A DNA stretch of 64,000 nt. Origin: Anaerolineales bacterium. GTDB lineage: Bacteria; Chloroflexota; Anaerolineae; Anaerolineales; RBG-16-64-43. The notes beneath the pieces are model-generated. The model did no database searches. It was not told the origin of the DNA and saw nothing but the letters and a program-made list of their open reading frames with translations. A program made the translations under genes and the position numbers. Below, piece by piece: positions 5,989 to 64,000 of this stretch; position 1 is the first letter of the stretch; every line of letters starts with the position of its first letter. The DNA lies in assembly GCA_035288225.1 (NCBI GenBank), contig DATEAT010000129.1:1010-65009 (forward strand). The letters run 5' to 3'.

Positions 5989-6235
5989 TGTGGGCTCTCG
6001 CTTATCTCTCGAGGAGGGTGGAATGGCATCGGATGGCCGCATCGCCGGCGGCGCGTTGGGCGGAATTGAGATCGGTGGACCGTCTTAGCCTAAGGGTGTG
6101 CAGACGCTCTCGGGGCGAGTGAACACTGGAAGAGTACGGCGATCTCCCGAACCAGCCGGAGTGTAGGCCGTGTGCGAATAATAGACTGGCGAGCTTTCCG
6201 ATAGATGGGGTGCCACCAGGTCGCTTACGTACAGG

Positions 6236-9451: not shown

Positions 9452-9951
9452 CCACCCGACAGTGGCTGACCAGATCGTGGAACTCTCGACGAGAGACCCG
9501 TGGCTTCGGGTCTCTCATTCTGTGCCTCCCCGATGCATCCCTTCATCCATTCGGTCGCCCTAAGCGGCATGAGAGTCCCCTGCTAATTCGCGAGCGGACT
9601 TGCATATTGAATTCGAGCAAATCAGATATAATCTCGCCCATTCCTGGGAGGCGGACCTCGTGTGCGCTAGCTGTGGGGGAGCTTTTCAGGAAGGATTCGC
9701 GGCAAGGGACGGGTCGGCGACTGTAGGCAGCGATTATTGGGCTCCACTCATGAGCAAAAGGGGCTCGCCTCGGCCCCGGATCGCAGCCGCTCCTGTCCAA
9801 GTCAACGTGCACGGCCGGTCCCTGTGTCATCCGTCGCAAGCGCATGCCAATTGCGTTCACGGGATAGTGCCGTGCCGCCCACAGGACGCTCCGCGGGCGC
9901 GCGATGGCGCAAGTGCAGTGCATGAGTCTTATCCCTGTGAAGGAGGCGTCC

Positions 9952-10497
9952 ATGTTCTCCTCTTTGTGGTGGCGGGTCGGGCGGTTCGTGAGAACCTCAC
10001 CGGCACGTCTCTTCCTCCTGGCGGGTGTTGTCGTTGCAGGTGCGTTGGCTCTCTCGGGATCGGCCGCGCCGGCCGGCACCACCCAACCGATGGCCTTCAA
10101 CCATCAAGTCATGGTGCAAGCCGGCGTGCAGTGTCTGTTCTGCCACAATGATGCACTGCGCTCGCCCTCGCCCGGCATGCCCAGCGTGGGACTGTGCATG
10201 GGCTGCCATAAGACAATCGCCGCCGAGCGCCCGGCCATCAAGCAACTCGCCGATTACTATGCGCGCGGCGAGCCCATCCCCTGGGCGCGCGTCAACTACG
10301 TGCCTCGCTTTGTCTACTTCAGCCACAAAGTCCATCTCACGGCGGGCGGCCTCAACTGCGAGAATTGCCATGGCGATGTGGGCCACATGAAGGAGGTCGA
10401 GCCCGTGGCGAGGATGAGCATGGGCTGGTGCCTCGATTGTCATTCCAAACAAACCAATGCGCCGCAATTGCGCGACTGTGTCATCTGTCACCGCTAG
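9952..10497 (+). CDS. actA: Alternative complex III subunit ActA, pentaheme cytochrome c
   Basis: AGGAGG RBS before ATG 9952. N-terminal TM anchor. Five CXXCH motifs (CLFCH, CMGCH, CENCH, CLDCH, CVICH). First gene of an act-type operon. Confidence 0.85.
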   Translation: MFSSLWWRVGRFVRTSPARLFLLAGVVVAGALALSGSAAPAGTTQPMAFNHQVMVQAGVQCLFCHNDALRSPSPGMPSVGLCMGCHKTIAAERPAIKQLADYYARGEPIPWARVNYVPRFVYFSHKVHLTAGGLNCENCHGDVGHMKEVEPVARMSMGWCLDCHSKQTNAPQLRDCVICHR

Positions 10498-10506
10498 GAG
10501 AGCGAC

Positions 10507-12693
10507 ATGACCGAGAAGATCTCACGCCGTGATTTCCTCCGGCTGGGGGCGGCCGGCGCCGCGACCGGTGTGCTGGCAGGATGCACCTCGCCCCGGCGCT
10601 GGGTTGTGCTGGAACCGTTTGTCCGTCCTCCGGAACAGCAAGTCTCGGGCGTTGCCACGTGGTACGCCACGACGTGCCGCCAGTGCCCGGCCGGTTGCGG
10701 GGTGATCGTTCGTCTCATGAATGGACGCGCGGTGAAACTGGAGGGCAACCCCGAGCATCCACTCAACCGCGGCAAGCTGTGCGCACGCGGTCAGGCCGGG
10801 CTGCAGATGCTGTACCACCCGGATCGTCTGAGCGGACCACTGCTGCAGTCCACGCGCGGCTCACGCGAGTTCTCCGCCATCGATTGGAATGAAGGCATCA
10901 ACCGATTGTTCCAGGCGCTCGAAAAGGCCGGCCCGGCCGTGGCGGTTTTTGGCGGCGCAACCATGTCGGACCACTTGTTCGACTTGTTCTCGAGGCTGCT
11001 GGCAGCCGTCGACGCTCCGGCGCCGGTGATCTACGACCTTTACACGGAACTAGGCGGCTACCGCATGCTTGCGCAAGCCATGGGTCAAGTCTACGGGCGC
11101 GCGGCCTTACCGGCCTACCGGTTGGCGGAGGCCGATGTGGTCTTCTCCTTCGGCGCGGAGTTCCTGGGCACGTGGACCTCGGCCGTCCGCTACGGCGTCG
11201 AGTACGGCGCGTTCCGCAGTCAACCTTACGGCAAGCGGGGTCTGTTGGTCCACTTCGAGCCGCGCCAGTCCTCAACGGCCGTCACGGCCGATGATTACGT
11301 TGCCATTGCGCCGGGAAGCGAAGGGCTTGTGGCCGGGGCCTTGTTGCGGATCATCGCCGACGGCAACCTGGGTTTGCCTGGGCGCGCGGAGAGCGCACGC
11401 GGGCTTGCGCCATCGCTGGATGTCGATCAGGCCGCGCGCGAATCCGGGATTCCACTGGAGGCGCTTCAACGTTGGGCGCGGCGTTTTGCCGAGGCAGAAC
11501 GCGCCGTGGCGATCCCCGGCGGCGCGCTGGCCGGGTCTTCGAATGGGATGCATGCCGCGCGGGCCATCGAGGCGCTCAACGTAGTGTCCGGGAGTGCACC
11601 GGCTGGCGTGAATACAACGCCCCCCGACCTCGGGTTGGCGCGCAAGTCGCTCAATACATTTGCGGATGTTCAATCGCTTATCGCGCGCATGCGCGCCGGC
11701 GAGGTCCAAGTGCTTCTGATTCACAGCACCAATCCGGCCTATGAACTCCCCGCAGCGGCCGGGTTCCTCGAGGCGCTGGCCCAAGTGCCGCTGGTCGTCT
11801 CCTTCGGGCCGATCGTCGATGAGACGGCTGTCTGGTCCGATCTCATCCTGCCCGATCGCTCGTACCTCGAATCGTTCGGTTACGAGGTAGTGTCGCCCGA
11901 CTTCGGATCGCCGGTGGTATCGAGCCAGCAGCCGGTCGTAACGCCGGTCTTCGACGCGCGAGCCACGGGCGATGTCCTGTTGACCGTGGCTCGCGGCATC
12001 CCTGCGGCCGCGGCCGCCATGCCCTGGGGCGACGAGGTCGACTACTTGAACCAAATGGTCGCCGGGCTGCCCGAGGCGGCTTACCCGGCGTCGACGCCGG
12101 AAGAAAAGCGCGCGCGCTTCCAACAACACGGCGGCTGGTGGCCGGCGCCCGCGGCGGCGGCACCCGCACTTCGCCCACAGCCCTTCACCGTCACCGCGCA
12201 ACGCGCCGCCTTCGACGGCAACGAGACGGACTACCCGTACTTCCTGCACGTCTATCCTTCGGTATTGCTATCGGATGGGCGCGGTGCCTCCCTGCCGCTC
12301 TTGCAGGGCGTGCCAGACCCGATGACCACCATCGCCTGGCAATCGTGGGTGGAGCTGCACCCCGCAACGGCTGGGCGCCTGGAGATCCGTGACGGCGACC
12401 TGCTGCGCGTGACCTCGCCACATGGCGAGATCGTGGCGGCGGCCTACGTCACCCCGGGCATCCGGCCGGATACGGTCGCCATCCCCGCCGGGCAGGGGCA
12501 CCAGGATTTGGGACGTTACGCCCGCGATCGCGGTTCAAACGTGGTGCAGCTGCTGGGTGCAGCCCTGACCGATGAGGGCGGGGGCCTGCGCTGGAACGGC
12601 GTGCGAGTGGCGCTGGCCCGCACGGGCAAACGAATCGCCACGGCTTCACTGGAGAGCAAGGTGGGTGTCACGGAGGGGTTGGGCTATGAGTGA
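10507..12693 (+). CDS. actB1: Alternative complex III subunit ActB, molybdopterin-oxidoreductase-like half (B1)
   Basis: Tat-type signal SRRDFLRLGAAGAATGVLAGC. N-terminal Cys cluster CRQCPAGCG...GKLCARG. Large DMSO-reductase-family-like body. Confidence 0.85.
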   Translation: MTEKISRRDFLRLGAAGAATGVLAGCTSPRRWVVLEPFVRPPEQQVSGVATWYATTCRQCPAGCGVIVRLMNGRAVKLEGNPEHPLNRGKLCARGQAGLQMLYHPDRLSGPLLQSTRGSREFSAIDWNEGINRLFQALEKAGPAVAVFGGATMSDHLFDLFSRLLAAVDAPAPVIYDLYTELGGYRMLAQAMGQVYGRAALPAYRLAEADVVFSFGAEFLGTWTSAVRYGVEYGAFRSQPYGKRGLLVHFEPRQSSTAVTADDYVAIAPGSEGLVAGALLRIIADGNLGLPGRAESARGLAPSLDVDQAARESGIPLEALQRWARRFAEAERAVAIPGGALAGSSNGMHAARAIEALNVVSGSAPAGVNTTPPDLGLARKSLNTFADVQSLIARMRAGEVQVLLIHSTNPAYELPAAAGFLEALAQVPLVVSFGPIVDETAVWSDLILPDRSYLESFGYEVVSPDFGSPVVSSQQPVVTPVFDARATGDVLLTVARGIPAAAAAMPWGDEVDYLNQMVAGLPEAAYPASTPEEKRARFQQHGGWWPAPAAAAPALRPQPFTVTAQRAAFDGNETDYPYFLHVYPSVLLSDGRGASLPLLQGVPDPMTTIAWQSWVELHPATAGRLEIRDGDLLRVTSPHGEIVAAAYVTPGIRPDTVAIPAGQGHQDLGRYARDRGSNVVQLLGAALTDEGGGLRWNGVRVALARTGKRIATASLESKVGVTEGLGYE

Positions 12694-13462
12694 GTTGGAG
12701 ACACGCCTCTTGGATCGAGGTCCGAGCGCCGCGGCGGCGCCCAAGACCGAGCTGCCGTCGCACAAATGGACGATGCTGATCGATCTCGATAAGTGCACCG
12801 GTTGCAACGCCTGCGTCGTGGCGTGCCATGTCGAGAACAACGTGCCCATTCGCAGCGAGCGGGAAGTGATCCGCGGCCACGGCCAGCACTGGATCCGCAT
12901 CGAGCGCTACTGGGAGGGGGAGGGCGACGCGCAGCGCGCCACGTTCCTGCCCATGTTGTGCCAGCAGTGCTCGAATGCGCCGTGCGAGCCGGTCTGCCCG
13001 GTGTACGCTTCGGTGCATAGTGAGCGCGAAAACCTCAACCTGCAGGTCTACAACCGCTGCGTGGGCACGCGCTTCTGCGGCAACAACTGCCCCTACCGCG
13101 CGCGGCAGTTCAACTGGTTTGCGCCCCAGTTCGAAGGACCGATCACCGAGATGCTTAACCCGGACGTGACGGTGCGCAGCGGCGGCGTGATGGAGAAGTG
13201 CACCTTCTGCGTGCAGCGTATTCGCCGGGTGGAAGAAGACGCGCTGGTCGAGGGACGCCCACTGCGCGACGGCGAAATGGTGCCGGCCTGCGCGCAGACC
13301 TGCCCCACGAGCGCCATCGTGTTCGGCGACCGCAGCGACCCCCAGAGCCAGGTGGCGCAGCGGTTGGGCGGGCAGCGTGAGTTCCAGGTGCTCGAACATC
13401 TGGGCACCGCACCCAACGTCTACTACCTCAAGGCGGGAGGGTCCGATGGCGGAGCAGGCTAG
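12686..13462 (+). CDS. actB2: Alternative complex III subunit ActB, 4Fe-4S ferredoxin half (B2)
   Basis: ATG 12686 overlaps the actB1 stop by 8 nt. Multiple Cys clusters (CTGCNACVVAC, CQQCSNAPCEPVCP, CVGTRFCGNNCP, CTFCVQR, CAQTCP), as in NrfC/PsrB-type subunits. Confidence 0.85.
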   Translation: MSELETRLLDRGPSAAAAPKTELPSHKWTMLIDLDKCTGCNACVVACHVENNVPIRSEREVIRGHGQHWIRIERYWEGEGDAQRATFLPMLCQQCSNAPCEPVCPVYASVHSERENLNLQVYNRCVGTRFCGNNCPYRARQFNWFAPQFEGPITEMLNPDVTVRSGGVMEKCTFCVQRIRRVEEDALVEGRPLRDGEMVPACAQTCPTSAIVFGDRSDPQSQVAQRLGGQREFQVLEHLGTAPNVYYLKAGGSDGGAG

Positions 13463-14906
13463 CCTCGAATCACCGGTCTGGAACCGGCCGTTGCCCGACG
13501 ACCCGGAACTCGCCGCACAGGTGCGCGAGATCCGCGAGAAGCATCTGCTGCAGGATGCCCGCCCGCCGGGTGAGGTAGCCGAGAAGGTGCTCGGCCCGAT
13601 GGCGAGATTAGGGCGTGTCTTCTGGCTGGCCTTCGTGGTGCTTGGCGGCCTCACGGCCACCTGGCTGGTGACGTGGGCATACCAGGCCTATCAGGGCATG
13701 GGCGTCACAGGTCTCAACCGCACCATCATGTGGGCGCCCTACATCGTCAACTTCGTGTACTTCATCGGCATCGGCCATGCCGGAACTTTCATTTCCGCGG
13801 CACTGCGCGTGCTCAAGTTCGACTGGCGCGCACCGATCAGCCGCGCCGCTGAGAGCCTGACGGTTTTCGCACTGCTCGTGGCGTTCACCATGCCCCTCAT
13901 CCATATGGGCCGCGTGTGGAAGTTCTACTGGATGCTTCCCTTCCCCAACCAGCGCCAGTTGTGGCCGAACCCGCGCTCGCCGATCTTTTGGGACATGACC
14001 GCCATCTTCACCTACCTCACCTGCAGCATGCTCTTCATGTATCTGGGCATCCTGCCGGATATTGCCACCGCCCGTGAGAAGTCCAGCGGCTGGCGCAAGC
14101 GACTGTACACCGTGCTGGCACTCGGATGGCGGGGGACCGACCGTGAGTGGAAGCACCTCGACACCACGCTCAACATCTTCAGCTACGGCATCATCCCGGT
14201 GATGTTCTCCGTGCACACCGTCGTCTCGTGGGATTTCGCCATGACCCTCCAGCCGGGATGGAACAGCACCATCTTCGGCCCGTATTTCGTGGTGGGCGCG
14301 CTGTACTCCGGGGTAGGTGCGGTCATCATCATCATGGCCATCTTGCGCAAAGCGCTGCACTTGGAGTACTTCTTGCGCGACGAGCACTTCAACGCGATGG
14401 GCAAGTTCCTGCTCATCCTCTCCTTCACCTGGGTTTACTTCTACTTCAACGACTACCTGCTGCCGTGGTATCACAAGGAACCGATCCTGACAGTCATCTT
14501 CCGCCTGTTCACATCCGGCTGGGCCGCGCCCCTGTGGTTCACGATGCTCATCGCCAACATCCTCGTTCCCTGGGCCACGCTCTGGTCGCGCAAGGTGCGA
14601 TCGTCGATCCCGGCGCTCGTGGGCGTGGCGCTGCTCGTTCAGGTCGGCATGTATATCGAACGCTACCTGATCGTGGCGGTGATGCTGGGTTACCCGGAAT
14701 TGCCGTTCAACTGGTCGGTGTACATCCCGCGCCTGCCGGAGATCCTCATCACCCTGGGCGTGTTCGCTTTCGTGGTGCTGGGCATCACCGTGCTCAGCCG
14801 CCTGGTGCCGATCATCCCCATCTGGGAAGTGGTGGAAGGCCAGTTGCTGCAAGGCACGCGGCGCATCGGTCGGGCCATCTTCCCCGCCAAGACCGAAGCC
14901 GACTAG
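13446..14906 (+). CDS. actC: Alternative complex III subunit ActC, NrfD/PsrC-like polytopic membrane quinol-interacting subunit
   Basis: RBS GGGAGG before ATG 13446, which overlaps the actB2 stop. About 10 hydrophobic helices. NrfD-like sequence (WAPYIVNFVYFIGIGHAGTFISA...). Confidence 0.85.
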   Translation: MAEQASLESPVWNRPLPDDPELAAQVREIREKHLLQDARPPGEVAEKVLGPMARLGRVFWLAFVVLGGLTATWLVTWAYQAYQGMGVTGLNRTIMWAPYIVNFVYFIGIGHAGTFISAALRVLKFDWRAPISRAAESLTVFALLVAFTMPLIHMGRVWKFYWMLPFPNQRQLWPNPRSPIFWDMTAIFTYLTCSMLFMYLGILPDIATAREKSSGWRKRLYTVLALGWRGTDREWKHLDTTLNIFSYGIIPVMFSVHTVVSWDFAMTLQPGWNSTIFGPYFVVGALYSGVGAVIIIMAILRKALHLEYFLRDEHFNAMGKFLLILSFTWVYFYFNDYLLPWYHKEPILTVIFRLFTSGWAAPLWFTMLIANILVPWATLWSRKVRSSIPALVGVALLVQVGMYIERYLIVAVMLGYPELPFNWSVYIPRLPEILITLGVFAFVVLGITVLSRLVPIIPIWEVVEGQLLQGTRRIGRAIFPAKTEAD

Positions 14907-14915
14907 GAGGCAGGC

Positions 14916-15944
14916 ATGGCCGACACTCAACTTCTGGGTCTGTTCAACGAAGCCGCTTCCACAGCCGAGGTGATCGAGCGCCTGCGTCGCGCGGGTGTGC
15001 GCGATGAACAGGTGTCGGTCATCAGCAGTGTGCCCTATCGGTCGCGCATGCTGCGCCGGCCCGAAATCACCAGCCGCATTTCGGCGGTCGCAGGCATCGG
15101 CGCCCTGGCCGGCGTCGTGATCGGGCTGGCGATCACTTTCGGCACGTATCTGCTCAATCCGCTTCCCGTGGGAGGCCAGCCGCAATTCCCGATTCCGCCC
15201 ACCCTGATCGTCGTCTTCGAAGTGATGATGCTGGGCATGATGTGGTCCGCCTTCGGCGCGTTCATGTTCATCAACCGTATGCCGGTGTTCGGCCGGCTGC
15301 CGTTCAGTGAGCATGTGGCCGACGGTTTGATCGGCGTGCTGGTGCAGGCTGAAGAAGGCCGTGCGGCCGGCATCGAACGGCTGCTTCGTGAGGCGGGCGC
15401 CTCCGAAGTGCAGCGCTTCGACAATTCGGCGCGTGCCGACAATGCCACCTGGATGAAGGTGGTGGGCGGCGCGGGATTGGCGGCCACGCTCGCTCTGGTG
15501 GTGGTGGTCATGCTCGCCTACGAGGTCATCAAGATCCCCTTCCCGACCAACATGGCCGACACGGTTGCGATCGCCCACTTGCAAGGTCCGCGGCTGGCCG
15601 CGCCGGCCGAGGCCGTGCCGGTCCAGGGTCCCGTTTTCATTGCCGGTATGCCGGCCATCCCCCAGGTCGCCTCATCTCCCGCCTCCATTCAGCGCGGGCA
15701 GGTGCTATTTGGCATCAACTGCATCATGTGCCACGGCGAAACGGGGCAGGGCAATGGGCGGCTGGCCACCTACTTCAACCCCAAACCGGCTGATCTCACG
15801 GGCGAGAAGGTGCGCGCCTTCGCCGACAGCGACATCTTTCTGGTCATCTCGCTGGGCCGCGGGCAAATGCCCAGCCTGGCCGAGAATCTTTCTCCGGCCT
15901 CACGCTGGGATGTGATCAACTATGTGCGCAGCTTGCAGAAGTAG
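14916..15944 (+). CDS. actDE: ActD (DUF3341-like membrane subunit) fused to an ActE-like monoheme cytochrome c
   Basis: RBS AGGAGG. N-terminal soluble part MADTQLLGLFNEAASTAEVIERLRRAGV, then two TM helices, a linker, a third TM helix (VVGGAGLAATLALVVVVMLAY) and a C-terminal class I cytochrome c domain with CIMCH. Confidence 0.75.
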   Translation: MADTQLLGLFNEAASTAEVIERLRRAGVRDEQVSVISSVPYRSRMLRRPEITSRISAVAGIGALAGVVIGLAITFGTYLLNPLPVGGQPQFPIPPTLIVVFEVMMLGMMWSAFGAFMFINRMPVFGRLPFSEHVADGLIGVLVQAEEGRAAGIERLLREAGASEVQRFDNSARADNATWMKVVGGAGLAATLALVVVVMLAYEVIKIPFPTNMADTVAIAHLQGPRLAAPAEAVPVQGPVFIAGMPAIPQVASSPASIQRGQVLFGINCIMCHGETGQGNGRLATYFNPKPADLTGEKVRAFADSDIFLVISLGRGQMPSLAENLSPASRWDVINYVRSLQK

Positions 15945-22557: not shown

Positions 22558-22989
22558 CTAGCTCTCCTGACCGCGGGTGCCACGCCCGCCGCTGCGGGAG
22601 CCCTTAAGCTGTGAGCGGAGCTTCTTGGCACGCAGGCGTTTCTCCCGCGCTGCGCGCGAAGGTTTGGTGGCCACGCGCAGTCGGGGCGGGCGCGCGGCAC
22701 GCTGAATGGCAACCGCCAGCTTACGCAGCACTTCGCGGCGGTTGGCCTCCTGCGTACGATGCGTATGCGCGACCAGGGTGAGCACGCCCAGGCGGTTTAC
22801 GCGCTTGCGCTCCAGTTGGGCCAGCCTCTCGCGCACGGACGAGGGCAAGGACGACCCGGCCAGGCGGAAGCGCAACTGGGCGGCGGTGGCCACCTTGTTC
22901 ACGTTTTGCCCGCCCGGGCCGGGCGAGCGCACGTACTCGATGGTCACTTCATCGTCGCGCAAACGCAGGGTCGGACTGATCTCGATCAT
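22558..22989 (-). CDS. arfB: Alternative ribosome-rescue factor ArfB (peptidyl-tRNA hydrolase, class I RF domain)
   Basis: From ATG 22989: ...VRSPGPGGQNVNKVATAAQLRF... (GGQ motif) followed by a long Arg/Lys-rich C-terminal tail. Confidence 0.85.
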   Translation of the reverse strand: MIEISPTLRLRDDEVTIEYVRSPGPGGQNVNKVATAAQLRFRLAGSSLPSSVRERLAQLERKRVNRLGVLTLVAHTHRTQEANRREVLRKLAVAIQRAARPPRLRVATKPSRAAREKRLRAKKLRSQLKGSRSGGRGTRGQES

Positions 22990-23268
22990 CCGTGTAATCG
23001 CCGCGTTCAACTTGGCTGGGATGATTCTACTCGCACCGGGCGGGGCGCAGGCGGCCATCTCCCGGCGCTGCGGCCATGTGGAGGCGCGCGGCGGACCGGG
23101 CCAAGGCATGTCCCTCAGGCCGCCTGGCACGCGGCAACGCGGCGCACCTCTCCCAAAGGCACTGGACCGAGGGGGCTCACGCCGGGCAGTCGGGGAGCAA
23201 TGCGGTGGCTGTCATCCAGGATCGACCAGCGACCCGGGAGGGGGAGGCCGGTTACGTGAAAGTATGTA

Positions 23269-35802: not shown

Positions 35803-38325
35803 ATGCAGGTGGATATCGAGTTGTATCGGCACGAGCTCGTGCTTTCGGAACACCCACCCGTTCACATCGCCGTCATCGACATCGCCCCCGAGCGCCCCGA
35901 ACGGACGTTGGTCTTCTTGCACGGTTTCGGCGGCGACGTTGCACAGTGGAAACGACAATTGACCCACTTCTCGGACGAGAACCGGGTCATCGCCATAGGC
36001 CTGCGCGGCCACCTCGCCCATGCGCATGCGAGCGGGCCGTTCACCACGCCCCAGTTGCGGGCGGACCTGGAGCGGGCGCTCGAGCTTCTGGGAGCTCCGG
36101 ACCGCATCGTCCTGGTTGGACACTCCTTCGGCAATGCGTTGGCGGCGGAGTTCGCCCAGACCTATCCGTCGCGCATCGAGGGATTGGTCCTCGTGGCACC
36201 TTCAGGCGAGTTCCGCCTGGCGTGGAATTACCGAACAGCGCTGAAGCTGCCGACCACCGTGCTCGACCTGGTCTACCCGCTGTTCCGCAAAACGCTGCAT
36301 GCGCCGCCGTCCGTGCTCAAGATGATGCATGAAAAGAGCGTGGCGCGCTGGAACGGATGGAGCCTGTTCCGCAGCTTGCGTGTGCCGACTTTGGTTGTCC
36401 GCGGCCATGGCGACAGGGTCTTTCGTCGCGACTCCTTGGAGGGTGTGGCGCGAGCCATCCCCGGAGCGCAAGATGTGGATGTTGGCGCCTCCGGGCACAT
36501 GGTGATGATCGAACGATCGGAGGCAGTCAACCGCGCGATCCGCCGCTTCCTCGGCCAAGCTTCCTCCTGGCGGGGCGAAAGCCCCTCCGATCGCGGGGCC
36601 GGCCCGCGATCGCTCCTCGGGGAGCGCCCCTGGCTGGCTCACTACGACAACGGCGTGCCGCATACCATCGCCGTGCCGGATGTGCCACTGCAGCGCTTTC
36701 TGCAGTCCTCCGCACGCAGGTTCCCTCGCCGGAGAGCCATAGTCTTTGAGGGCGGCGGCATGTCTTATCGCCGCCTCGATCAGGAGAGCGACCGATTGGC
36801 GCAGGCACTGGCTCGATTGGGGATTGGCCCGGGTCGCCGCGTGATGATCCTGCTGCCCAATCTGCCTCAGACGGTGGTGACCTTCTTTGGGGTGCTCAAG
36901 GCCGGCGCCACAGTGGTCCTGGCCAGCCCGGTCTCCGAGCCGGACGAAGTGATGCGCCAGGTGCGCGATGCTCAGGTCGACGGGCTGATCACGTTGACGA
37001 AGCTGGCGGAGGTTGGCCGCGAGGTTCTGCGCTGCACTGCAGTTCGCCATGTCATCTTCACCTCGGTGGCCGATTATCTGCCCCCAGGGAAGAAGGTCCT
37101 GTTCCGCTTGCTGCGCGAGGGACCCGAGGGGCATCGCCTGCCGAAACCCCTCGAGCAGGGGATGCACACGCTGAAGGTTTTGCTGAGCGGCCAGTATGCT
37201 CCTCAGCCGATGAGCGAGCCGCGGGTCGGCGACCTGGCGGTGATTGCCTACACGGGCGGCACGACGGTCGCCCCGCGAGGGGTCATGCTCAGCCACCGCA
37301 ACCTGGCCGCCAATGCCCTGCAAGTCCGGCACTGGGTGCCGGACTTGCGCGAGGGCCGCGAAGTCTTCCTGAGCGTGCTGCCGTTTACCCACAGCTATGG
37401 TCAGACGACGGCTCTTATCGTCCCGGTGATGATGGGGGCAACTATGGTGATCTTGCCCACGTTCATTACCGGTCAGGTTTTGCGTGCCATCCGCCGCCAC
37501 CGGCCGACCCTCTTCCCTGGGGTGCCCACCATGTACACGGCCATCAACAACTTCGCCGGGGCGCGGCGTTACGGCATCCGATCGATCCGCGCGTGCATTT
37601 CGGGAGCCGCCCCGTTGCCGGTGGAAGTGCAAGAAGCCTTTGAGAAACTGACCCGCGGACGGCTTGTGGAAGGTTACGGCCTGACCGAAGCCGGCCCGGT
37701 GACCCACGCCAACCCGCTCTACGGGAGGCGCAAGATCGGTTGCATCGGGTTGCCGGTGCCGAGCACGGAGGCGATGGTCGTCGATCTCCTCAGCGGCGAG
37801 CGATTGCCGCCAGGGGCGATCGGCGAACTGGCCGTGCGCGGTCCGCAGGTGATGCGCGGCTACTGGGGGGCGCCCGCTGAGACGAGCGAAGTTTTGCGCC
37901 CTGACGGGTGGCTGCTCACGGGCGACGTGGCGCGCGCCGACGAGGAGGGCTACTTCCAAATCATTGCGCGCAAGCGCGAGATGATCCTGGCCGGCGCCTA
38001 TCAGGTTTACCCGCGCGACGTGGAAGAGGTGCTGTACGAACATCCGAAAGTCAAAGAGGTGGCGGTGGTCGGAATCCAGCGCAGCGACTCACCCTCCCAG
38101 GTGATCAAGGCCTACGTGGTGCTGCGTGCAGGAGAGACGGCCAGCCCGGAGGAACTGATGGAGCTCTGCCGCCGGCGCCTGGCGGAATATGCCGTGCCGT
38201 GGGAAATCGAATTCCGCGATGACCTGCCGAAGAGCTTCGTGGGCAAAGTGCTGCGCAGGCTGTTGGTCGAGGAAGACATGCGCGCTGTTGCCTCCGCACA
38301 CAACCTCTCCGGCGCGCGCGAGTGA
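35803..38325 (+). CDS. Fusion protein: N-terminal alpha/beta hydrolase plus C-terminal AMP-dependent (long-chain) acyl-CoA synthetase
   Basis: N-part: LVFLHGFGGD and nucleophile elbow LVGHSFGNALA. C-part: AMP-binding signature IAYTGGTTVAPRGVMLSH, GYGLTEAG, TGDVARADEEGYFQIIARKRE and a C-terminal GKVLRR. Confidence 0.8.
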   Translation: MQVDIELYRHELVLSEHPPVHIAVIDIAPERPERTLVFLHGFGGDVAQWKRQLTHFSDENRVIAIGLRGHLAHAHASGPFTTPQLRADLERALELLGAPDRIVLVGHSFGNALAAEFAQTYPSRIEGLVLVAPSGEFRLAWNYRTALKLPTTVLDLVYPLFRKTLHAPPSVLKMMHEKSVARWNGWSLFRSLRVPTLVVRGHGDRVFRRDSLEGVARAIPGAQDVDVGASGHMVMIERSEAVNRAIRRFLGQASSWRGESPSDRGAGPRSLLGERPWLAHYDNGVPHTIAVPDVPLQRFLQSSARRFPRRRAIVFEGGGMSYRRLDQESDRLAQALARLGIGPGRRVMILLPNLPQTVVTFFGVLKAGATVVLASPVSEPDEVMRQVRDAQVDGLITLTKLAEVGREVLRCTAVRHVIFTSVADYLPPGKKVLFRLLREGPEGHRLPKPLEQGMHTLKVLLSGQYAPQPMSEPRVGDLAVIAYTGGTTVAPRGVMLSHRNLAANALQVRHWVPDLREGREVFLSVLPFTHSYGQTTALIVPVMMGATMVILPTFITGQVLRAIRRHRPTLFPGVPTMYTAINNFAGARRYGIRSIRACISGAAPLPVEVQEAFEKLTRGRLVEGYGLTEAGPVTHANPLYGRRKIGCIGLPVPSTEAMVVDLLSGERLPPGAIGELAVRGPQVMRGYWGAPAETSEVLRPDGWLLTGDVARADEEGYFQIIARKREMILAGAYQVYPRDVEEVLYEHPKVKEVAVVGIQRSDSPSQVIKAYVVLRAGETASPEELMELCRRRLAEYAVPWEIEFRDDLPKSFVGKVLRRLLVEEDMRAVASAHNLSGARE

Positions 38326-38367: not shown

Positions 38368-39192
38368 ATGATCCGAGAAGATGCACTGCAAGCCGCCGGA
38401 CTCCAAATCCACTTCTACGAATGCGGCTCCTCGCATAAGGACTCGCTTCTGTTTGTGCACGGCTGGGCCAGTTCCGGACGCATGTGGCACGAAACGATGA
38501 GCGCGATGAGCGATGAATGGCGCTGCCTGGCCCCGGACCTGCCCGGTCACGGCCAATCCGACAAGCCGCCCTTCTCGTGGTATTCAGTGTCGAATTTCGC
38601 GGAGGCGATCGGCGCCTGGGCCGATCAGCTTGGCGGCTTGCCGCGTGTAGCAGTGGGTCACTCGCTGGGGGGGGCGGTGGTCGTGGAGCTCGCGATGCGG
38701 CATCCGCAACGTCTTGGCCGAATCGTCCTGGTGAATCCTGTGGTGAGCGGACGCGTCAGCTATAACCTTCACGCCCTCTCGGGTAGGGTACCGCGTCAGA
38801 CGATCCTCGACCTTGGCCGGCGAGTGTGGCCCCGCGCCCGTGCGCACTTGCTGCGGCGGGCGGCGCGGGGCGGGGCGGGTGCGCGGATGAAGGAATACCT
38901 GCAGCGCAACCTGCAGGATCTGGCGCAAACCACGGCCGATTCGGTGCTGGGCAGTGCGCGTGCGGCAATCCACCACGATTTGACCGACCACATGGCCGGG
39001 CTCACATTGCCCGTGCTGGTGGTGGTCGGGACGCACGACACGACTGTCCCCCCCGAAGAGGGCCGCCGCCTGGTGCGGTGCGCTCAGCAAGCCCAGCTGG
39101 TGGAGCTGGACGCGGGACATCTGCCGACGGATGAGCAGCCGCAAGCCTTCGTCAGCGCGCTTCGCACGTTCCTCCGCAGCGGCACGGTCTAG
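38368..39192 (+). CDS. Alpha/beta hydrolase
   Basis: LLFVHGWASSGRMW, elbow AVGHSLGGAVV, and a C-terminal GHLPTDEQP (His of the triad). Confidence 0.85.
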   Translation: MIREDALQAAGLQIHFYECGSSHKDSLLFVHGWASSGRMWHETMSAMSDEWRCLAPDLPGHGQSDKPPFSWYSVSNFAEAIGAWADQLGGLPRVAVGHSLGGAVVVELAMRHPQRLGRIVLVNPVVSGRVSYNLHALSGRVPRQTILDLGRRVWPRARAHLLRRAARGGAGARMKEYLQRNLQDLAQTTADSVLGSARAAIHHDLTDHMAGLTLPVLVVVGTHDTTVPPEEGRRLVRCAQQAQLVELDAGHLPTDEQPQAFVSALRTFLRSGTV

Positions 39193-48522: not shown

Positions 48523-48553
48523 CACAAGCGGGCTGCAGAGCAGCCCGCTTGTG
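48523..48553. terminator. Hairpin terminator between convergent DUF554 and DsbA-like genes
   Basis: Perfect 13-bp stem CACAAGCGGGCTG / CAGCCCGCTTGTG with loop CAGAG. Confidence 0.6.
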
Positions 48554-48577: not shown

Positions 48578-49279
48578 CTAACTGCCGATTTTCGCCAGTT
48601 CGGCCTCGATGACCTTCTGGAACTCCGAGAAGGGCAGGGCGCCCTGGACGAGCTGCCCATTGATGATGAAGGAGGGCGTGGAGGCGACACCCACCGATTG
48701 CCCGCGCGCCTTGTCCTGGTTGATCTGGTCGTCGTAACGCCCTGAACTCAGGCACGAGCGGAACTTACCCTCATCCAGCCCGAGCATCTCGGCGAAGGCC
48801 AGCAACCGCCTGTCGATGTAGTCGCCCACGTTCTCGCCGGTGTGATTGGCGAACAGCATGTCGTGATAATCCCAGAAGCGTTCCTGTTCGGCGGCGCACA
48901 TCGAAGCCCGTGCCGCGCCCATCGATTCGGGCCCAATGATCACGAAGTTGCGGTAGATGAAGCGGACTTTCCCGGTGGCCACGTACTGTTCGGTGATCTG
49001 ACGCCCCGCGTCAGCGGCGAAATCGCCACAGTACGGTCATTGAAAGTCGGAGAATTCTTCCATCACTACGGGTGCATTGGGGTCCCCCATTTCGCGGCCG
49101 CTGGCCATGGGGACGGCTTCGGGAGTGATCGCGACGATAGCGCCCACCGGGCGCGTGTTTTGCCAGATGATAAATGCTGCCACCAGCACTGCCAGGCCGC
49201 CGACAATGGCCAAGAATGAAAGCTGCCGCCGGCGCGCCGAACGGCGGCGTCGATCGCGCATTTCTTCGCGCTTTGACAT
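48578..49279 (-). CDS. Membrane-anchored DsbA/BdbD-like thiol:disulfide oxidoreductase with an in-frame TGA (49037-49039) at the first Cys of CXXC: candidate selenoprotein, alternatively a nonsense pseudogene
   Basis: Track ORFs 49037..49279 and 48578..48982 share one frame and are separated by a single TGA. Read-through gives ...GDPNAPVVMEEFSDFQ-U-PYCGDFAADAGRQITEQYVATGKVRFIYRNF... plus a DsbA-type helical insert and the C-terminal GVASTPSFIING. RBS GGAGG before ATG 49279. N-terminal TM helix. Confidence 0.65.
48992..49036 (-). promoter_or_regulatory. SECIS-like stem-loop immediately downstream of the in-frame UGA
   Basis: mRNA: UGA-CCGUACUGUGGCGAUUUCGCCG-CUGACGC-GGG-GCGUCAG-AUCACC. The 7-bp stem is perfect (plus strand 48998-49014) and the G-rich apical loop lies about 29 nt after UGA. 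A possible lower stem GGCGAU/AUCACC has one mismatch. Confidence 0.45.
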
Positions 49280-49413
49280 GAGACCTCCAGGAACCGGATT
49301 GGGCCGAGTCTGCCATAAACGACGCGGTCTGTCCAGGTCCGAGCCTGAGGTCCTGACCGCATTCAGTTGTGAATTGGCTGGGGAGGGTACGTACGGCAGC
49401 CGCAGCCGCGGCC

Positions 49414-58189: not shown

Positions 58190-59221
58190 CTAAGGGCCGA
58201 TTGGCGTCGCGGGAGGCGGTGTGGGGTTGACCTGCAGCGGATGCCCGGAGTGGATGAGCAAGAAGGTGGTCTGGCCGGGTAGCACCTGGAACACCTCGTC
58301 GTACTTCTTCCACCACACCCACACCGTAATGCGGTAGTAGCCGGCCGGCAAATCACTCACCACGAAGTTCTCGTTGTATTCGTCATCGGGGTGGGCCACG
58401 TCGTCGATGTAAGTCCAGCTGCGCCACACGCGACCCGTGTCGAGTGAGGTGATGGTGAAGCTCTTCTTGGGGATCGGCCAGTCATCCACCGATTCGATGC
58501 GCCCGGCCACCACGCCCCAGCCCTGAGGCGGTACCAGCCACAGCTCGGGGTTGCGTGTCGCGAAGAAGGAATCCTCGCCGACTCGCACCTCGAAATGCAG
58601 GTGCGCGCCGGTTACCTTGCCGGTGGCGCCCACCTCTCCGATTTGCTCCCCCGCATGGACATATTGCCCGACCTTGACGTTGACCGCGCGCATGTGGGCA
58701 TAGGCGGTGTAGACCGGCTTGCCCTCAAAACCAAAGTCGTGCTGGATAGACACGGCCAGCCCGTAAGGGTCATCGCGATTGGGGTAGTGGCCGAAAAGCC
58801 CGTAGCCGGCCCACATGACGACTCCATCGGCCGCCGCCAGCACCGGGTGCCCGCTGGGGGTGGACATGTCGATACCGGAGTGGGTGTGCATGTCATCGAA
58901 GTAGTTGCCGCCATAACGGTACTCGGGGTTCGGCCAATTGACCTCGCCCGAGGCGATTGGGCGGGCGAACCAGAAATGGTCTTCCGGGCGGAGTTGGAGC
59001 GGAATGCGATAAGGTGGAGGGCGCAATCCCTCCGGGCGCGTGTCGACCGTGAGCGGCATGGGGGCAAGGATCGGTGGTTCGGCCGGGATGGGCGTGGGAG
59101 TCTGAAACACCGCGGTGACCTGCGCCGCGGCCGCCGGGGCGGGCGATGCATCCGTCGCAAGCAATGCTTCGCCGCTCATCAAACCCACCACCAGAACAAT
59201 CAGGCTCAACACATACTTCAT
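58190..59221 (-). CDS. M23 family metallopeptidase with an extra C-terminal beta domain
   Basis: RBS GGAG before ATG 59221. Signal peptide MKYVLSLIVLVVGLMSGEALLA. HSGIDMSTP...AYAHM...GATGKVTGAHLHFEV. Confidence 0.85.
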   Translation of the reverse strand: MKYVLSLIVLVVGLMSGEALLATDASPAPAAAAQVTAVFQTPTPIPAEPPILAPMPLTVDTRPEGLRPPPYRIPLQLRPEDHFWFARPIASGEVNWPNPEYRYGGNYFDDMHTHSGIDMSTPSGHPVLAAADGVVMWAGYGLFGHYPNRDDPYGLAVSIQHDFGFEGKPVYTAYAHMRAVNVKVGQYVHAGEQIGEVGATGKVTGAHLHFEVRVGEDSFFATRNPELWLVPPQGWGVVAGRIESVDDWPIPKKSFTITSLDTGRVWRSWTYIDDVAHPDDEYNENFVVSDLPAGYYRITVWVWWKKYDEVFQVLPGQTTFLLIHSGHPLQVNPTPPPATPIGP

Positions 59222-59232
59222 CGAGGCCGCTC

Positions 59233-61083
59233 CTAATAGGTCGGCGTCGGCCAGCGCGTGTCGCTTGGGCGCGGACCAAACCAGTACTGATAGATGCGCG
59301 GCGTCGGCGTGATGGAGGGCGTCGGCGTGAGGAAAGCCTCCAACGGGAAGAGCTCGCCCATCGCCGCAGCCCAGTCGAGTCCGTCGGCGGCACGGAATTC
59401 CCAATAACGAATCCCGGAATAGAAGGAGCGCCAGTTGGCGTCGGCGGCTACCCGCAGCCAGCCATGTTCAGCGGCGAGCAGGGTGAAATCCTCGTAGTAG
59501 CCGGGCGGAAGCGTGCTGCGATAGGCGCCGCCCCGGTCATAATCGGAAGGTGAGCCGGAGGCGCGCGCTTCGAAATCCCACGGCGCATCGCGCAGCGGTT
59601 CGCCCATCGATCCATCCTGGGCACGAGTGCGCAAGTAGAGATGCCAGTAGGTGTATTGTCCGAGCGGCTCGGGGACGACTTCCAGCCAACCCTGCACAGC
59701 CGCGGCACGGGCGATCGCAATCGTGCGCCCAGTGCGGAACCACGAAAGTTCATCCTGCGGCGGGCGCGGGGCGCCGGGCCCAATCACGGCGCTGTCGAGG
59801 GTCCCCAGGAAATCCCACCCGGCGTCCGATTGGATCCTTTGGCGCAGAACTCCAAACCGGTCGACCACGGAGCTGCTCAGGCGTGCATCCGGCGCCTGAA
59901 CATTGATGGCGGTCAGAGTCGCACCGAGCGGACCGGCATGCACGGTGGCCGCGGCTGTGGCGGCCGAGGCGGCCAGTTGGGAGGCGTTGGCCTGCAACCA
60001 GTCCGGCAGCGGATCGGACAGAGGTTTGGCTGTCCAACTGATGCCGCCAAGATAGCCTTCCAGAGGAAGTACCGACGGCGCCAGGACCGAGGTGGGCGGT
60101 GCCACCTGCAAGAACGAGGTCAGCGCGCTCGGATAGAAGGAAGAAGCCAATCGGTCGCCGGTGGGGCTCCAGACCGGGCGCACGCCCTGAGCGGCGGTCT
60201 GGGGCGGCGCCTGCAAATCATCCAGGGATTGGACGAACACCCAGCGGTAGCCGTTCTCTACCGCGGTAAAGGCGAGGCGCTGCGCGTCCGGGCTGAAAAC
60301 CGGGTCGCCCTCGTCCACCTCGGCTGTATGGGTCAGCTCGCGTGATTGGAGCGTGTCCAAATCGAGAAGATAGAGGTCGGTTCCCTTTTCGCGTCGCGAG
60401 GCGAAGGCGATCGAACGGCCTTGCGGCGACCACGAGGGAGCGAATGACGAGAAGGGACCTTCATCGCACCAGGCAGGTGAGCCGCCCGCGGTTGCGAGAA
60501 TGCAGATGCTCATGCGCGTGGCGGCGAAGTGCTCGTAGACAATCCACTGGCCATCGGGCGACCAGGCGGGACGGCCGTCGTAGTCGAGCGAATCGGTGAG
60601 CCGGCGGGTCTCTCCGCTCGCCAGATCGGTCAGGTAGATATCCCAGTTGCCGTCGCGGCGCGAGGCATAAGCCAGCGCGGTGCCCTGAGGATTGAATGCC
60701 GGGTCGCGGTCATCGCTGCCCAGCGCGAGCGGCAATGCATCGGGGCTGCCGAGCGGCAGGAGAAAAACGGTCGACCGACCATCGCGGCGCAAGGCGTAAG
60801 CGATCGTCCCGGACTCGAGCAGGAGGTTGACAGGCGTGGGAACTGAGAGCGACGGTGTGGGCGGTGGAGGGGTCTGGCTCGCTGTGGGCGAGGGGGACGA
60901 GATCGGCTCGGGGGTTGCCGCCGCGGTGAGCGTCAGGTGTTGCGAGTCGACGGTAGGCGAACTCGAGGGCGCCTGGCCCCCAAGGAGCCCCGCCAGCGAA
61001 GAACCGCACGCGCTGAGCAACAGCCCCAGGCAGCAAATTGCCATCACGTGCGTCGCCAGCGCGGCGGCCCTTGACGCGGACAT
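59233..61083 (-). CDS. TolB-like (PD40/WD40 beta-propeller) lipoprotein with an uncharacterised C-terminal domain
   Basis: From ATG 61083: signal/lipobox AICCLGLLLSAC, Pro/Ser/Thr linker, repeated PD40-type units (DPAFNPQGTALAYASRRDGNWDIYL; GRPAWSPDGQWIVYE; APSWSPQGRSIAFAS; DPVFSPDAQRLAF; PVWSPTGDRLA). Confidence 0.75.
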   Translation of the reverse strand: MSASRAAALATHVMAICCLGLLLSACGSSLAGLLGGQAPSSSPTVDSQHLTLTAAATPEPISSPSPTASQTPPPPTPSLSVPTPVNLLLESGTIAYALRRDGRSTVFLLPLGSPDALPLALGSDDRDPAFNPQGTALAYASRRDGNWDIYLTDLASGETRRLTDSLDYDGRPAWSPDGQWIVYEHFAATRMSICILATAGGSPAWCDEGPFSSFAPSWSPQGRSIAFASRREKGTDLYLLDLDTLQSRELTHTAEVDEGDPVFSPDAQRLAFTAVENGYRWVFVQSLDDLQAPPQTAAQGVRPVWSPTGDRLASSFYPSALTSFLQVAPPTSVLAPSVLPLEGYLGGISWTAKPLSDPLPDWLQANASQLAASAATAAATVHAGPLGATLTAINVQAPDARLSSSVVDRFGVLRQRIQSDAGWDFLGTLDSAVIGPGAPRPPQDELSWFRTGRTIAIARAAAVQGWLEVVPEPLGQYTYWHLYLRTRAQDGSMGEPLRDAPWDFEARASGSPSDYDRGGAYRSTLPPGYYEDFTLLAAEHGWLRVAADANWRSFYSGIRYWEFRAADGLDWAAAMGELFPLEAFLTPTPSITPTPRIYQYWFGPRPSDTRWPTPTY

Positions 61084-61579: not shown

Positions 61580-61951
61580 TCAATAGTACGAAGAAGGAGG
61601 AGCGATCTTGAGGGTGGTCTCTGCTGTATCCTGTGGCGGATCTTCGCCGAACTGCAGCACCGCCTGCACACGGTGAAGACCAGGCTCGATCTCGCCTCGC
61701 ACGTGGACCGTAAGCTCTATGTCGTGCGCATCGCTCTCGATTACCGAGAGCGAGCCGGCGACGCGGCCGGAAGGGCTAATCACCTCAACATGGAGCGTGG
61801 GACGTTCCTGGAAGGGGGTTAGGACGACGCGCAAGTGAATGCGCCGCCCATCGCCGTAAGGCAGCGCGCTGATCGATGTGATCCGGACTTCATTGCGTGG
61901 CCGGCCGTTCGGATTGACAGGCGTGAGATTGAATTCCATCGTCGGCGGCAT
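61580..61951 (-). CDS. Hypothetical small protein (123 aa)
   Basis: Beta-rich ORF (EVRITSISALPYGDGRRIHLRVVLTPF...LHVEVISPSGRVAGSLSV...HRVQAVLQFG). No family recognised. Divergent from fdhD. Confidence 0.45.
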   Translation of the reverse strand: MPPTMEFNLTPVNPNGRPRNEVRITSISALPYGDGRRIHLRVVLTPFQERPTLHVEVISPSGRVAGSLSVIESDAHDIELTVHVRGEIEPGLHRVQAVLQFGEDPPQDTAETTLKIAPPSSYY

Positions 61952-62095
61952 TATAATTCACGCCTTCCCACTCCCGATGTGAACGCGCGCTGTGCACGCC
62001 GTGTGCCTCATCGCCCATCACATCTCAGCAATTCACCTGATCTCATTGGCGCCGCCGTATCGCGCGCTGCGCCCGGCGCGGCTTCAGGCCAGGAC

Positions 62096-62983
62096 ATGTC
62101 GCCTCGAAAAGACCGAGATGCTCCGCGCCCTGGGATGCGCGGTGCCGCACCAGCCGAGACACCGGGCCGTCGCGAGCCTGCGCCGCGTCCGGATAGCTCG
62201 TTCCCCGGCGCGGTGGCAGCAGGCTACCAGCTTTATGAAGAAGGATCCTGGCGCGAGGCGCCGGGCGGCCTGGTTGTAGAGGAATTCGAGTTGTGCCTAT
62301 ATGTCAACGGCCAGGAATTAGCGACCATGGCGGCCACGCCGGTCGACCAGGAAGTACTCGGGCTGGGGTTCCTGGCCAACCAGGGGCTGATCCAAAGCCT
62401 GGCCGAAGTGCGCGAGTTGCACTTGAGCCACGAAGGCTCATGCGTCGACATCTGGCTCGACCACGACATCGACCCACCGACGCGCAAGGTGCTGACCTCC
62501 GGTTGCAGTGGAGGCATCACCTTCGGCACTCTGGTTCAGCGGCTGGTTCCACTGCAGGCCAGCCCGGGCATGTCGGTGGATGACATCGTGGCCGGCATGG
62601 CGGCGCTGCAGAGGGCGGGAGTGCTTTACCCCCATACGCGCGGCGTTCACACCTCCATTCTGTGGCGAGGCGGCCAGGTGCTGGCCTCGGCCGAGGATGT
62701 CGGCCGCCACAACACGCTCGACAAACTGCGCGGGCACTGTCTGCGTGGCGGCATCGACCCGCAAGGCGCGTGCCTGATATCCACCGGGCGCATCAGCAGC
62801 GAGATGATCACCAAAGCGGCGCGCATGGGTTGCCCGGTTGTCGTCTCGCGCACCTCCGCCACCAGCCTGTCGGTCGCCCTGGCCCGCGAGTGGAACATCA
62901 CTCTGGTCGGGTATCTGCGCTCGCACCCTGGGCGACAGGGGCGCATGCTGGTCTACAGCCACCCGCAACGCATTCTGGCCTGA
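62096..62983 (+). CDS. fdhD: Formate dehydrogenase accessory sulfurtransferase FdhD
   Basis: LVVEEFELCLYVNGQELATMAATPVDQEVLGLGFL, TSGCSGGITFG, DVGRHNTLDKL and SGRISSEMITKAARMGCPVVVSRTSATSL. ATG 62096 chosen as start (alternative ATG 62135). Confidence 0.85.
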   Translation: MSPRKDRDAPRPGMRGAAPAETPGRREPAPRPDSSFPGAVAAGYQLYEEGSWREAPGGLVVEEFELCLYVNGQELATMAATPVDQEVLGLGFLANQGLIQSLAEVRELHLSHEGSCVDIWLDHDIDPPTRKVLTSGCSGGITFGTLVQRLVPLQASPGMSVDDIVAGMAALQRAGVLYPHTRGVHTSILWRGGQVLASAEDVGRHNTLDKLRGHCLRGGIDPQGACLISTGRISSEMITKAARMGCPVVVSRTSATSLSVALAREWNITLVGYLRSHPGRQGRMLVYSHPQRILA

Positions 62984-63729: not shown

Positions 63730-64000
63730 ATGACAGAGCGAGAGACTTTCATTCCCTCCGAATCCACACCCCAGCCGGCGGGCGGCCCGATCGTCGCCCC
63801 GCACAGCCGCGAGGCCGAAGAGGCCCTGCTCGGGTCGGTGCTCATCAACCCTGAGGCCTACTATGAGGTGGCTTCTTTCCTTGGGCCGGGCGATTTCTAC
63901 CTGCACCGCAACGGCTGGGTGTGGGAGGCCTTCCATCAACTCGTGGAAAAACGGGTGCCCATCGATGTGATGACCGTGGCCCAGGAGTTGGAACGCGCAG
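63730..64000 (+). CDS. dnaB: Replicative DNA helicase DnaB, N-terminal part (3' end outside the window; not in the ORF track because no stop is reached)
   Basis: Hand translation from ATG 63730: MTERETFIPSESTPQPAGGPIVAPHSREAEEALLGSVLINPEAYYEVASFLGPGDFYLHRNGWVWEAFHQLVEKRVPIDVMTVAQELERA, the canonical DnaB N-terminal domain. Confidence 0.85.
   Translation, partial: MTERETFIPSESTPQPAGGPIVAPHSREAEEALLGSVLINPEAYYEVASFLGPGDFYLHRNGWVWEAFHQLVEKRVPIDVMTVAQELERA

Follow-up and report, generated by a model that had tools for sequence, protein, structure and literature searches.

Introduction

DsbA-like (COG2761/PF01323) and DsbG-like (COG1651) oxidoreductases that carry a UxxC motif, with selenocysteine (Sec, U) in the place of the first, nucleophilic cysteine, have been known as selenoproteins since 2005 and are treated in current reviews, and the conversion of Cys to Sec is the usual route in thiol oxidoreductases (PMC1088965, PMC1794560, PMC5029168, PMC13188914). 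The sources on these UxxC proteins are the surveys of Zhang & Gladyshev from 2005-2008 and of Peng et al. from 2016, and a review from 2026. One criterion in use for taking a TGA as a Sec codon is that it recurs in two or more different sequences and is no sequencing error (PMC1976440). We analyzed a stretch of 64,000 nucleotides from an Anaerolineales bacterium (contig DATEAT010000129.1, positions 1,010 to 65,009 of the forward strand), which we call the window and on whose minus strand a gene for a DsbA-like protein (48578..49279) is interrupted by an in-frame TGA codon. An initial annotation of this DNA had proposed a candidate selenocysteine oxidoreductase at this position, and had rightly stated that Sec-containing DsbA-like proteins are found in selenoproteome surveys. 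The comparative analysis presented here supports that proposal, short of proof, because the TGA is conserved, Cys is found at the same position elsewhere and the frame is under purifying selection. Judged from its sequence and that of its orthologues, the gene very probably encodes a true selenoprotein, in which Sec has recently replaced Cys in a membrane-anchored oxidoreductase of the DsbA/BdbD type.

Results

The TGA codon lies at the nucleophilic cysteine of a DsbA-like protein

The read-through gene comprises 233 codons, including the in-frame TGA, and a terminal TAG (48578..49279, minus strand), and is defined by its translation, by Pfam and Protein Data Bank (PDB) matches and by selection on both sides of the TGA. 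The 2 minus-strand open reading frames (ORFs) into which it had been divided, 49037..49279 (80 amino acids) and 48578..48982 (134 amino acids), share one frame, and the only internal stop of this frame is the TGA at 49037-49039 (codon 81), exactly in the coordinates and the frame that had been annotated. The translation around this codon reads VVMEEFSDFQ-TGA-PYCGDF, and in its longer context GDPNAPVVMEEFSDFQ-TGA-PYCGDFAADAGRQ. A Shine-Dalgarno-like GGAGG (49284..49288, minus strand) is located 4 nucleotides (nt) before the ATG start codon (49277-49279), in agreement with the good ribosome-binding site noted initially.

To place the protein, Pfam was queried with the read-through sequence in which a Cys had been put at the TGA. 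The matches to Thioredoxin_4 (PF13462; E = 1.3e-35, 123.5 bits against a cut-off of 23.2) and to DSBA (PF01323; E = 1.3e-16, 61.4 bits against a cut-off of 25.6) both passed the family threshold, and they cover residues 63-226 on both sides of the TGA. The closest solved structure in HMMER alignments was PDB 4pwp, "DsbA" (E = 1.5e-23), and Bacillus subtilis BdbD (3eu3) matched with E = 9.5e-17. In the alignment, EFSDFECPFC of 4pwp is placed over EFSDFQ(TGA)PYC, which puts the TGA exactly at the nucleophilic Cys. The Pfam matches across the junction and the 4pwp alignment thus bear out the claim that the TGA replaces the first Cys of a DsbA-like CXXC motif. The TGA (49037..49039, minus strand) is therefore the proposed Sec codon at the first position of CxxC, and the putative redox motif U-P-Y-C (49028..49039, minus strand) aligns with CPFC of 4pwp. 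A Thr-Pro pair at residues 201-202 (48674..48679, minus strand; within GVASTPSF, aligned by HMMER as gvastpsf with GVSGTPAF of 4pwp) lies where DsbA-type proteins have their conserved loop with a cis-Pro, to which we assign it. Both elements are thus present, a CxxC/UxxC motif where the catalytic dithiol is expected and the Thr-Pro loop (STP, against GTP in 4pwp).

The N-terminal part contains a single predicted transmembrane helix (residues 20-38, LSFLAIVGGLAVLVAAFII; 49166..49222, minus strand), with a mean Kyte-Doolittle value of 2.76 over 19 amino acids. Residues 1-19 include 10 R/K against 3 D/E, and there is no Cys within the first 60 amino acids, so that the protein is without a lipobox. 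By the positive-inside rule, the helix would act as a signal anchor that leaves the catalytic domain outside the cytoplasm. The best NCBIfam match was NF041057, the "Rcas_1661 family thioredoxin-like (seleno)lipoprotein" (E = 5.4e-43), in which residues 64-226 align with profile positions 84-246 of 247 and the N-terminal part of the profile is left unmatched. The prefix Rcas is presumably the locus tag of Roseiflexus castenholzii (Chloroflexota), which, if right, would be from the same phylum.

The TGA is conserved in one clade and replaced by Cys codons elsewhere

A protein search returned full-length Cys-type relatives that are 76-82% identical, and several clusters of 134-amino acid C-terminal fragments that are 93-98% identical. 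When their DNA was compared, these fragments turned out to be orthologues that bear the TGA in a shared gene neighbourhood, in which a GNAT acetyltransferase gene is followed by the DsbA gene and then by a convergent DUF554 gene. Three of the fragment clusters (P0004/P0008/P0012) hold 27 member sequences from dozens of contigs, and additional TGA haplotypes were drawn from their members. Altogether, TGA was found at the same codon in 19 syntenic sequences from JGI, ENA, Logan and NCBI assemblies, including the GTDB species representative, an uncultured Anaerolineales metagenome-assembled genome (MAG; L010, CAYGXJ010000064.1), and cluster members. Among them are 8 distinct full-length TGA haplotypes with 90-100% nucleotide identity, which have no indels and no further internal stops. 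Two divergent haplotypes (L177; L178-L180) carry U-P-F-C instead of U-P-Y-C. Two clearly different TGA haplotypes, one of each motif (L006 and L180), occur in the same ENA assembly, ERZ27247916, which suggests that strains of the TGA clade coexist.

The recurrence of the TGA in independent assemblies excludes a sequencing error, and with 19 sequences and 8 haplotypes the conservation goes beyond the 2 different sequences asked for in the field. The TGA is real and conserved, and it is aligned with the Cys of homologues between flanks that are conserved on both sides. Among the matches listed in genome and metagenome scans, the 184 aligned homologues have Cys in 176 cases, Ser in 1 and TGA in 7 at this column, and every TGA case falls in one narrow clade; the metagenome scan contributed distant Cys-type relatives only. 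The nearest Cys orthologues are syntenic, about 80% identical in nucleotide sequence, and use TGT or TGC at this codon. Since the homologues without TGA have Cys in all cases but the one Ser, the change from Cys to TGA must be recent, following the logic by which the direction of conversions between Cys and Sec codons is inferred in the field (PMC1794560). The tabulation of orthologues suggested initially has thus been carried out, and its outcome is opposite to the case in which all orthologues would carry TGC or TGT without a conserved hairpin: there are 19 TGA copies, and the hairpin described below is conserved in the TGA haplotypes and occurs only together with TGA.

Apart from codon 81, UGA serves as a normal stop codon in the genome. 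About 23 of the 50 confident gene calls in the window end in TGA, from which we conclude that there is no genome-wide reassignment. We also scanned the window for read-through candidates with a codon-usage model, in which the codon 81 TGA ranked first among the 227 TGAs of the window when the coding potential before and after each TGA was compared, and no second convincing candidate appeared; a scan based on GC3 only discriminated poorly, missing even the codon 81 TGA, and the codon-usage model was used in its place. All the public sources that were examined, the NCBI record (P0125, on a contig of 63,598 bp) among them, present the gene as an 80-amino acid stub and a 134-amino acid fragment starting from an internal GTG. 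The gene probably encodes a selenoprotein and is systematically mis-annotated by this division.

The reading frame is under purifying selection before and after the TGA

Past the TGA, the 8 haplotypes of the TGA clade have ratios of non-synonymous to synonymous substitution rates (dN/dS) of 0.13-0.25 at dS values of up to 0.34, which departs from neutrality with P values from 1e-5 to 1e-9. Upstream of the TGA, dN/dS is 0.06-0.27, and intact Cys orthologues have values of 0.15-0.28, the same range as the TGA clade. The whole frame is therefore under purifying selection, and because selection extends past the TGA, the downstream part must be translated and functional. We examined the window for a DsbA paralogue that could compensate for a loss of this gene and found none. 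The TGA is neither a sequencing error nor the mark of a pseudogene. The 8 haplotypes free of indels and stops, together with the dN/dS of 0.13-0.25 past the TGA, agree with the initial argument that the intact frame speaks against decay.

A hairpin specific to the TGA lineage lies downstream of the codon

A hairpin, CUGACGC-GGG-GCGUCAG, begins 22 nt past the UGA (48998..49014, minus strand), where a perfect 7-bp stem had been predicted. On the basis of its fold and of comparison, it is the core of a putative selenocysteine insertion sequence (SECIS), with a stem of CUG(A/G)CGC paired to GCGUCAG and an apical GGG loop (49005-49007) that lies 29-31 nt past the UGA. Across the TGA haplotypes, the 7-bp/GGG hairpin is identical except for one A-to-G change, which turns an A-U into a G-U pair, and it is 100% paired. 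The Cys orthologues L007-L009 are without it, with local free energies of -3.9 to -6.2 kcal/mol compared with -11.6 to -12.2 kcal/mol in the TGA type. The hairpin is therefore specific to the TGA lineage. With respect to one of these Cys orthologues, L008, the stem differs by AAG to GGG (K to G), CCT to CGT (P to R) and GGA to GCT (G to A). A second, small hairpin, GGCG-AUUU-CGCC (49016..49027, minus strand), appears in the minimum free energy (MFE) fold and starts 9 nt past the UGA. It is 100% paired in 6 distinct sequences, and its changes are limited to the loop (AU to UA, A to U) or to one replacement of G-C by G-U. The small hairpin may belong to the recoding structure as an accessory element. 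A possible lower stem, GGCGAU/AUCACC, that had been added to the 7-bp hairpin in the initial annotation was rejected as a conserved element, because only 3 of its 6 pairs are left in L005 and L010.

Synonymous variation is suppressed past the TGA in the TGA-type lineage, in codons 82-114 (48938..49036, minus strand). In 5 haplotypes, codons 78-114 contain no synonymous variable site where 7.6 were expected (P = 5e-4; run-length permutation, P = 0.009), and in all 8 haplotypes codons 82-114 contain 5 where 11.9 were expected (P = 0.02). In the Cys orthologues, codons 82-114 exceed the rest of the gene in both synonymous and non-synonymous variability. This suggests a constraint at the RNA level on codons 82-114 in the TGA lineage.

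Genomic context and other features of the window

Between the DsbA gene and the convergent DUF554 gene, 25 nt past the stop codon, there is a perfect 14-bp inverted repeat, CACAAGCGGGCUGC-UCU-GCAGCCCGCUUGUG (48523..48553, minus strand). The 76-nt region around it folds at -37.7 kcal/mol (z = -3.67, with 0 of 200 shuffles equal). A terminator scan made no call at this repeat, whose T-tail is weak. From its position and fold, it is probably a transcript-end hairpin, which may work in both directions.

Among about 50 window ORFs annotated with Pfam, the only gene that is loosely related to the Sec machinery encodes a sulfurtransferase of the FdhD/NarQ family (61835-62983, plus strand). Its ORF has a long N-terminal extension without a family match, so that the true start is probably internal; no formate dehydrogenase gene adjoins it, and it is followed, at the end of the window, by a dnaB-like N-terminus (63730-64000, plus strand). 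In the DNA fetched for comparison, a single tRNA-Sec was found, on a metagenome contig of 65% GC from a different organism (L118, JADMIO011204730.1). It is a bona fide tRNA-Sec (4265-4357, plus strand; Rfam RF01852, 73.7 bits) that lies directly upstream of a Cys-type DsbA homologue, with neighbours at 4394-5239 (plus strand) and 1816-3093 (minus strand). The DsbA gene of this contig is most similar to loci of Anaerolineales MAGs, and the contig also carries a 425-amino acid ORF in which a DsbA-like Thioredoxin_4 domain is fused to a cyclophilin-type peptidyl-prolyl isomerase (PPIase). Neither selA nor selB was found on this contig when the neighbourhood of the tRNA-Sec was examined. For the use of Sec in the Anaerolineales species, this tRNA-Sec is context and not proof. 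Chloroflexi are known to carry tRNA-Sec (PMC5389517), and there are phylum-level reports of tRNA-Sec and selenoproteins in Chloroflexi (PMC5389517, PMC1794560, PMC13326102).

Elsewhere in the window, an operon at 9904-15944 (plus strand) resembles that of Alternative Complex III and encodes a multihaem cytochrome c7-like protein, a molybdopterin-oxidoreductase-like protein of 728 amino acids, a 4Fe-4S protein, an NrfD-type membrane subunit and an ActD-cytochrome c fusion. The gene at 22558-23130 (minus strand) encodes a 190-amino acid protein with an RF-1 domain only, which resembles an ArfB-type peptidyl-tRNA hydrolase/ribosome-rescue factor. An 840-amino acid fusion (35803-38325, plus strand) joins an N-terminal alpha/beta-hydrolase to an AMP-binding enzyme of the acyl/aryl-CoA ligase type, and is followed by a second, stand-alone alpha/beta-hydrolase (38368-39192). 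Finally, three genes with LysM and/or M23 peptidase domains are located at 2350-4667 and 58190-59404 (minus strand), two of them in tandem beside rho (4711-6042).

Discussion

The proposed recoding and the observations that weigh against it

We propose that the UGA at codon 81 is recoded as Sec, which would result in a 233-residue, membrane-anchored enzyme with a U-P-Y-C active site. By the established bacterial pathway, SelB-GTP-Sec-tRNA(Sec) would bind the hairpin CUGACGC-GGG-GCGUCAG when the ribosome reaches the UGA and would deliver Sec in competition with RF2, after which translation would go on through the thioredoxin fold. The catalytic domain would then be exported, and the selenolate would stand in for the nucleophilic thiolate in disulfide exchange. 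The predicted peptide across codon 81 would be EEFSDFQ-U-PYCGDFAADAGR, with a mass shift of +47.94 Da relative to Cys. Sec as the inserted residue, binding of SelB to the hairpin and the membrane topology are steps that we infer. The Sec form would have arisen recently from a Cys ancestor in a single Anaerolineales clade at the level of a species or genus, and its SECIS would have been built in place by a few amino acid-changing substitutions in a normally variable stretch past the CxxC. The data fit well with an unusually young conversion of Cys to Sec, in which the stepwise birth of the SECIS can be reconstructed substitution by substitution against L008.

Several observations weigh against this interpretation. 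ARAGORN and Rfam searches of the 64-kb window, which is the coverage of the species for the search of sel genes, returned tRNA-Lys, tRNA-Asn and tRNA-Arg only and no tRNA-Sec; Pfam annotation of about 50 window ORFs gave no SelA, SelB or SelD; and tblastn with reconstructed Escherichia coli SelA/B/D queries found none of them in about 2 Mb of fetched DNA. The restriction of the TGA form to one narrow clade limits its evolutionary depth. On NF041057, the protein scores 147.3 bits and the Cys orthologues score 128-164 bits, all short of the equivalog cut-off of 190 bits. The remaining points concern the hairpin. The bSECISearch model, ascribed to Zhang & Gladyshev (2005, Bioinformatics), reportedly expects a small apical loop with a G at 16-37 nt from the UGA, and the geometry found here (7-bp stem, GGG loop, 29 nt) fits this range, yet contiguous stems of 7 bp or more in a matching arrangement occur by chance at 15% of in-frame positions in the window's own coding sequences. 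Moreover, when ranked among these coding sequences by fold energy, the region comes at about the 40th percentile, and given this comparison an earlier shuffle z-score of -2.15 for the hairpin region should not be over-read. No compensatory double substitutions were found in the hairpin when the TGA haplotypes were checked for covariation, and a long-range stem of the MFE fold, CGUACUGU/ACAGUACG, was rejected as a conserved element because it breaks in divergent haplotypes. None of the Rfam SECIS models, which we ran with Infernal, matched at E <= 10; to our knowledge, a general bacterial SECIS model does not exist, and this null result is therefore uninformative either way. The genome has a GC content of 65%, and the background of 15% is consistent with the excess of SECIS-like structures reported in GC-rich genomes (PMC12013277). 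Hence the hairpin that had been described as SECIS-like is present, conserved and specific to the TGA lineage, while the weight given to it on its own was overrated: support for it is comparative, and as a sequence feature taken alone it is weak evidence.

Alternative explanations

The main residual alternative is that UGA is read through without Sec. The lineage might then even have no Sec machinery, and a near-cognate or dedicated suppressor tRNA, such as a selC*-type tRNA-Cys with the anticodon UCA, would insert Cys with the help of the downstream structure and so yield an ordinary CPYC enzyme, the stop and the structure together keeping expression low or regulated as a read-through switch maintained by selection. 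We consider this improbable. In its favour, termination in E. coli is weak at a UGA that precedes a C, purifying selection proves translation and not the identity of the residue, and no Sec machinery of this species was seen in the window or in the fetched DNA. There is also a precedent, as a tRNA-Cys(UCA) of tRNA-Sec-like shape decodes UGA as Cys in other anaerobes, but the known selC* tRNAs come from Firmicutes, Thermodesulfobacteria, Nitrospirae and Proteobacteria and not from Chloroflexi, and they always occur beside a complete Sec system (PMC5389517). Furthermore, selenoproteins are classically recognized by just such an exact pairing of Cys and TGA at a catalytic redox Cys (PMC1794560), and Sec recoding predicts a hairpin that arises at SECIS distance in one lineage and is then held fixed, as seen here. 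Replacing a working TGY codon by a leaky stop would bring no obvious gain.

If the gene were a recently inactivated pseudogene fixed in the clade, the TGA would terminate translation and the downstream part would be decaying or irrelevant. The confinement of the TGA form to one narrow clade, the division of the gene into ORFs of 80 and 134 amino acids by all public gene callers and the possibility that the hairpin alone is due to chance would all agree with this. It is strongly disfavoured and very unlikely, because no frameshifts, indels or further stops have accumulated over 8 haplotypes at dS values up to about 0.3-0.45, the check for such lesions in relatives having found none, because the constraint past the TGA (dN/dS 0.13-0.25, P down to 1e-9) equals that on intact Cys orthologues, and because no DsbA paralogue in the window could compensate for the loss. 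Purifying selection in each part, and the fact that gene finders call both ORFs, would also be expected from two separate functional genes, one for an 80-residue membrane peptide and the other for a 134-residue protein starting from GTG 48982. The chances of this are slighter still: the thioredoxin fold of the 134-residue piece would miss its beta1 strand, the CxxC and the beginning of helix alpha1, alignments to Pfam and PDB entries cross the junction from residue 63-64 on, the 17 codons from the TGA to the GTG keep the frame, contain no stop and are homologous to those of the Cys orthologues, and 176 of the 176 other homologues, among the matches listed, are single proteins. A sequencing or assembly error, or a genome-wide reassignment of UGA, is a general possibility only, and both are refuted by the identical TGA of 19 copies that were sampled and assembled independently (the recurrence in JGI, ENA, Logan and NCBI assemblies answering the concern about errors raised initially) and by the use of TGA as the stop of about 23 of 50 gene calls. 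A +1 frameshift at the UGA was considered too and rejected, as the homology continues in the zero frame (PYCG).

Comparison with known systems

If Sec insertion at codon 81 is confirmed, a membrane-anchored, extracytoplasmic BdbD/MdbA-like oxidoreductase from Anaerolineales would join the UxxC selenoproteins. The locus would offer a rare close-up of the change from a Cys codon to a Sec codon, since the TGA clade is 90-100% identical and syntenic Cys orthologues are only about 20% diverged from it, and it would show a SECIS hairpin carved from a variable protein segment that then froze both synonymous sites and amino acids. Knowledge of Sec biology itself would not be changed.

The candidate resembles the surveyed UxxC selenoproteins in being a thioredoxin-fold disulfide oxidoreductase with Sec proposed for the first, nucleophilic Cys, in having a stem-loop with an apical G just past the UGA, and in having widespread Cys homologues from which the Sec form is derived. 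It differs from them, the published examples having been compared by description only, in belonging to the Thioredoxin_4 or BdbD-MdbA-like branch and in its predicted N-terminal membrane anchor, and the conversion appears to be very recent and restricted to one Anaerolineales clade. With the NF041057 lipoproteins it shares the DsbA-like domain, and the name of that family implies that some of its members are selenoproteins, whereas the protein described here is predicted to be held by a transmembrane signal anchor and lacks a lipobox Cys; the score below the cut-off and the missing lipobox therefore make it a sister subfamily of NF041057 rather than a member. Among solved structures, the Gram-positive extracytoplasmic oxidoreductases 4pwp/4pwo ("DsbA"), 7unn and BdbD (3eu3) are the closest (E = 1.5e-23 to 1e-16), but all of them have a Cys-x-x-Cys motif and none is a selenoprotein. 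The putative SECIS, finally, resembles the canonical bacterial element of E. coli fdhF in being a hairpin within the coding sequence that directly follows the UGA on its 3' side and is capped by a small, G-containing loop. It has no sequence similarity to the fdhF element, no bulged U and no GU in its loop, which consists only of GGG, and its binding by SelB is putative.

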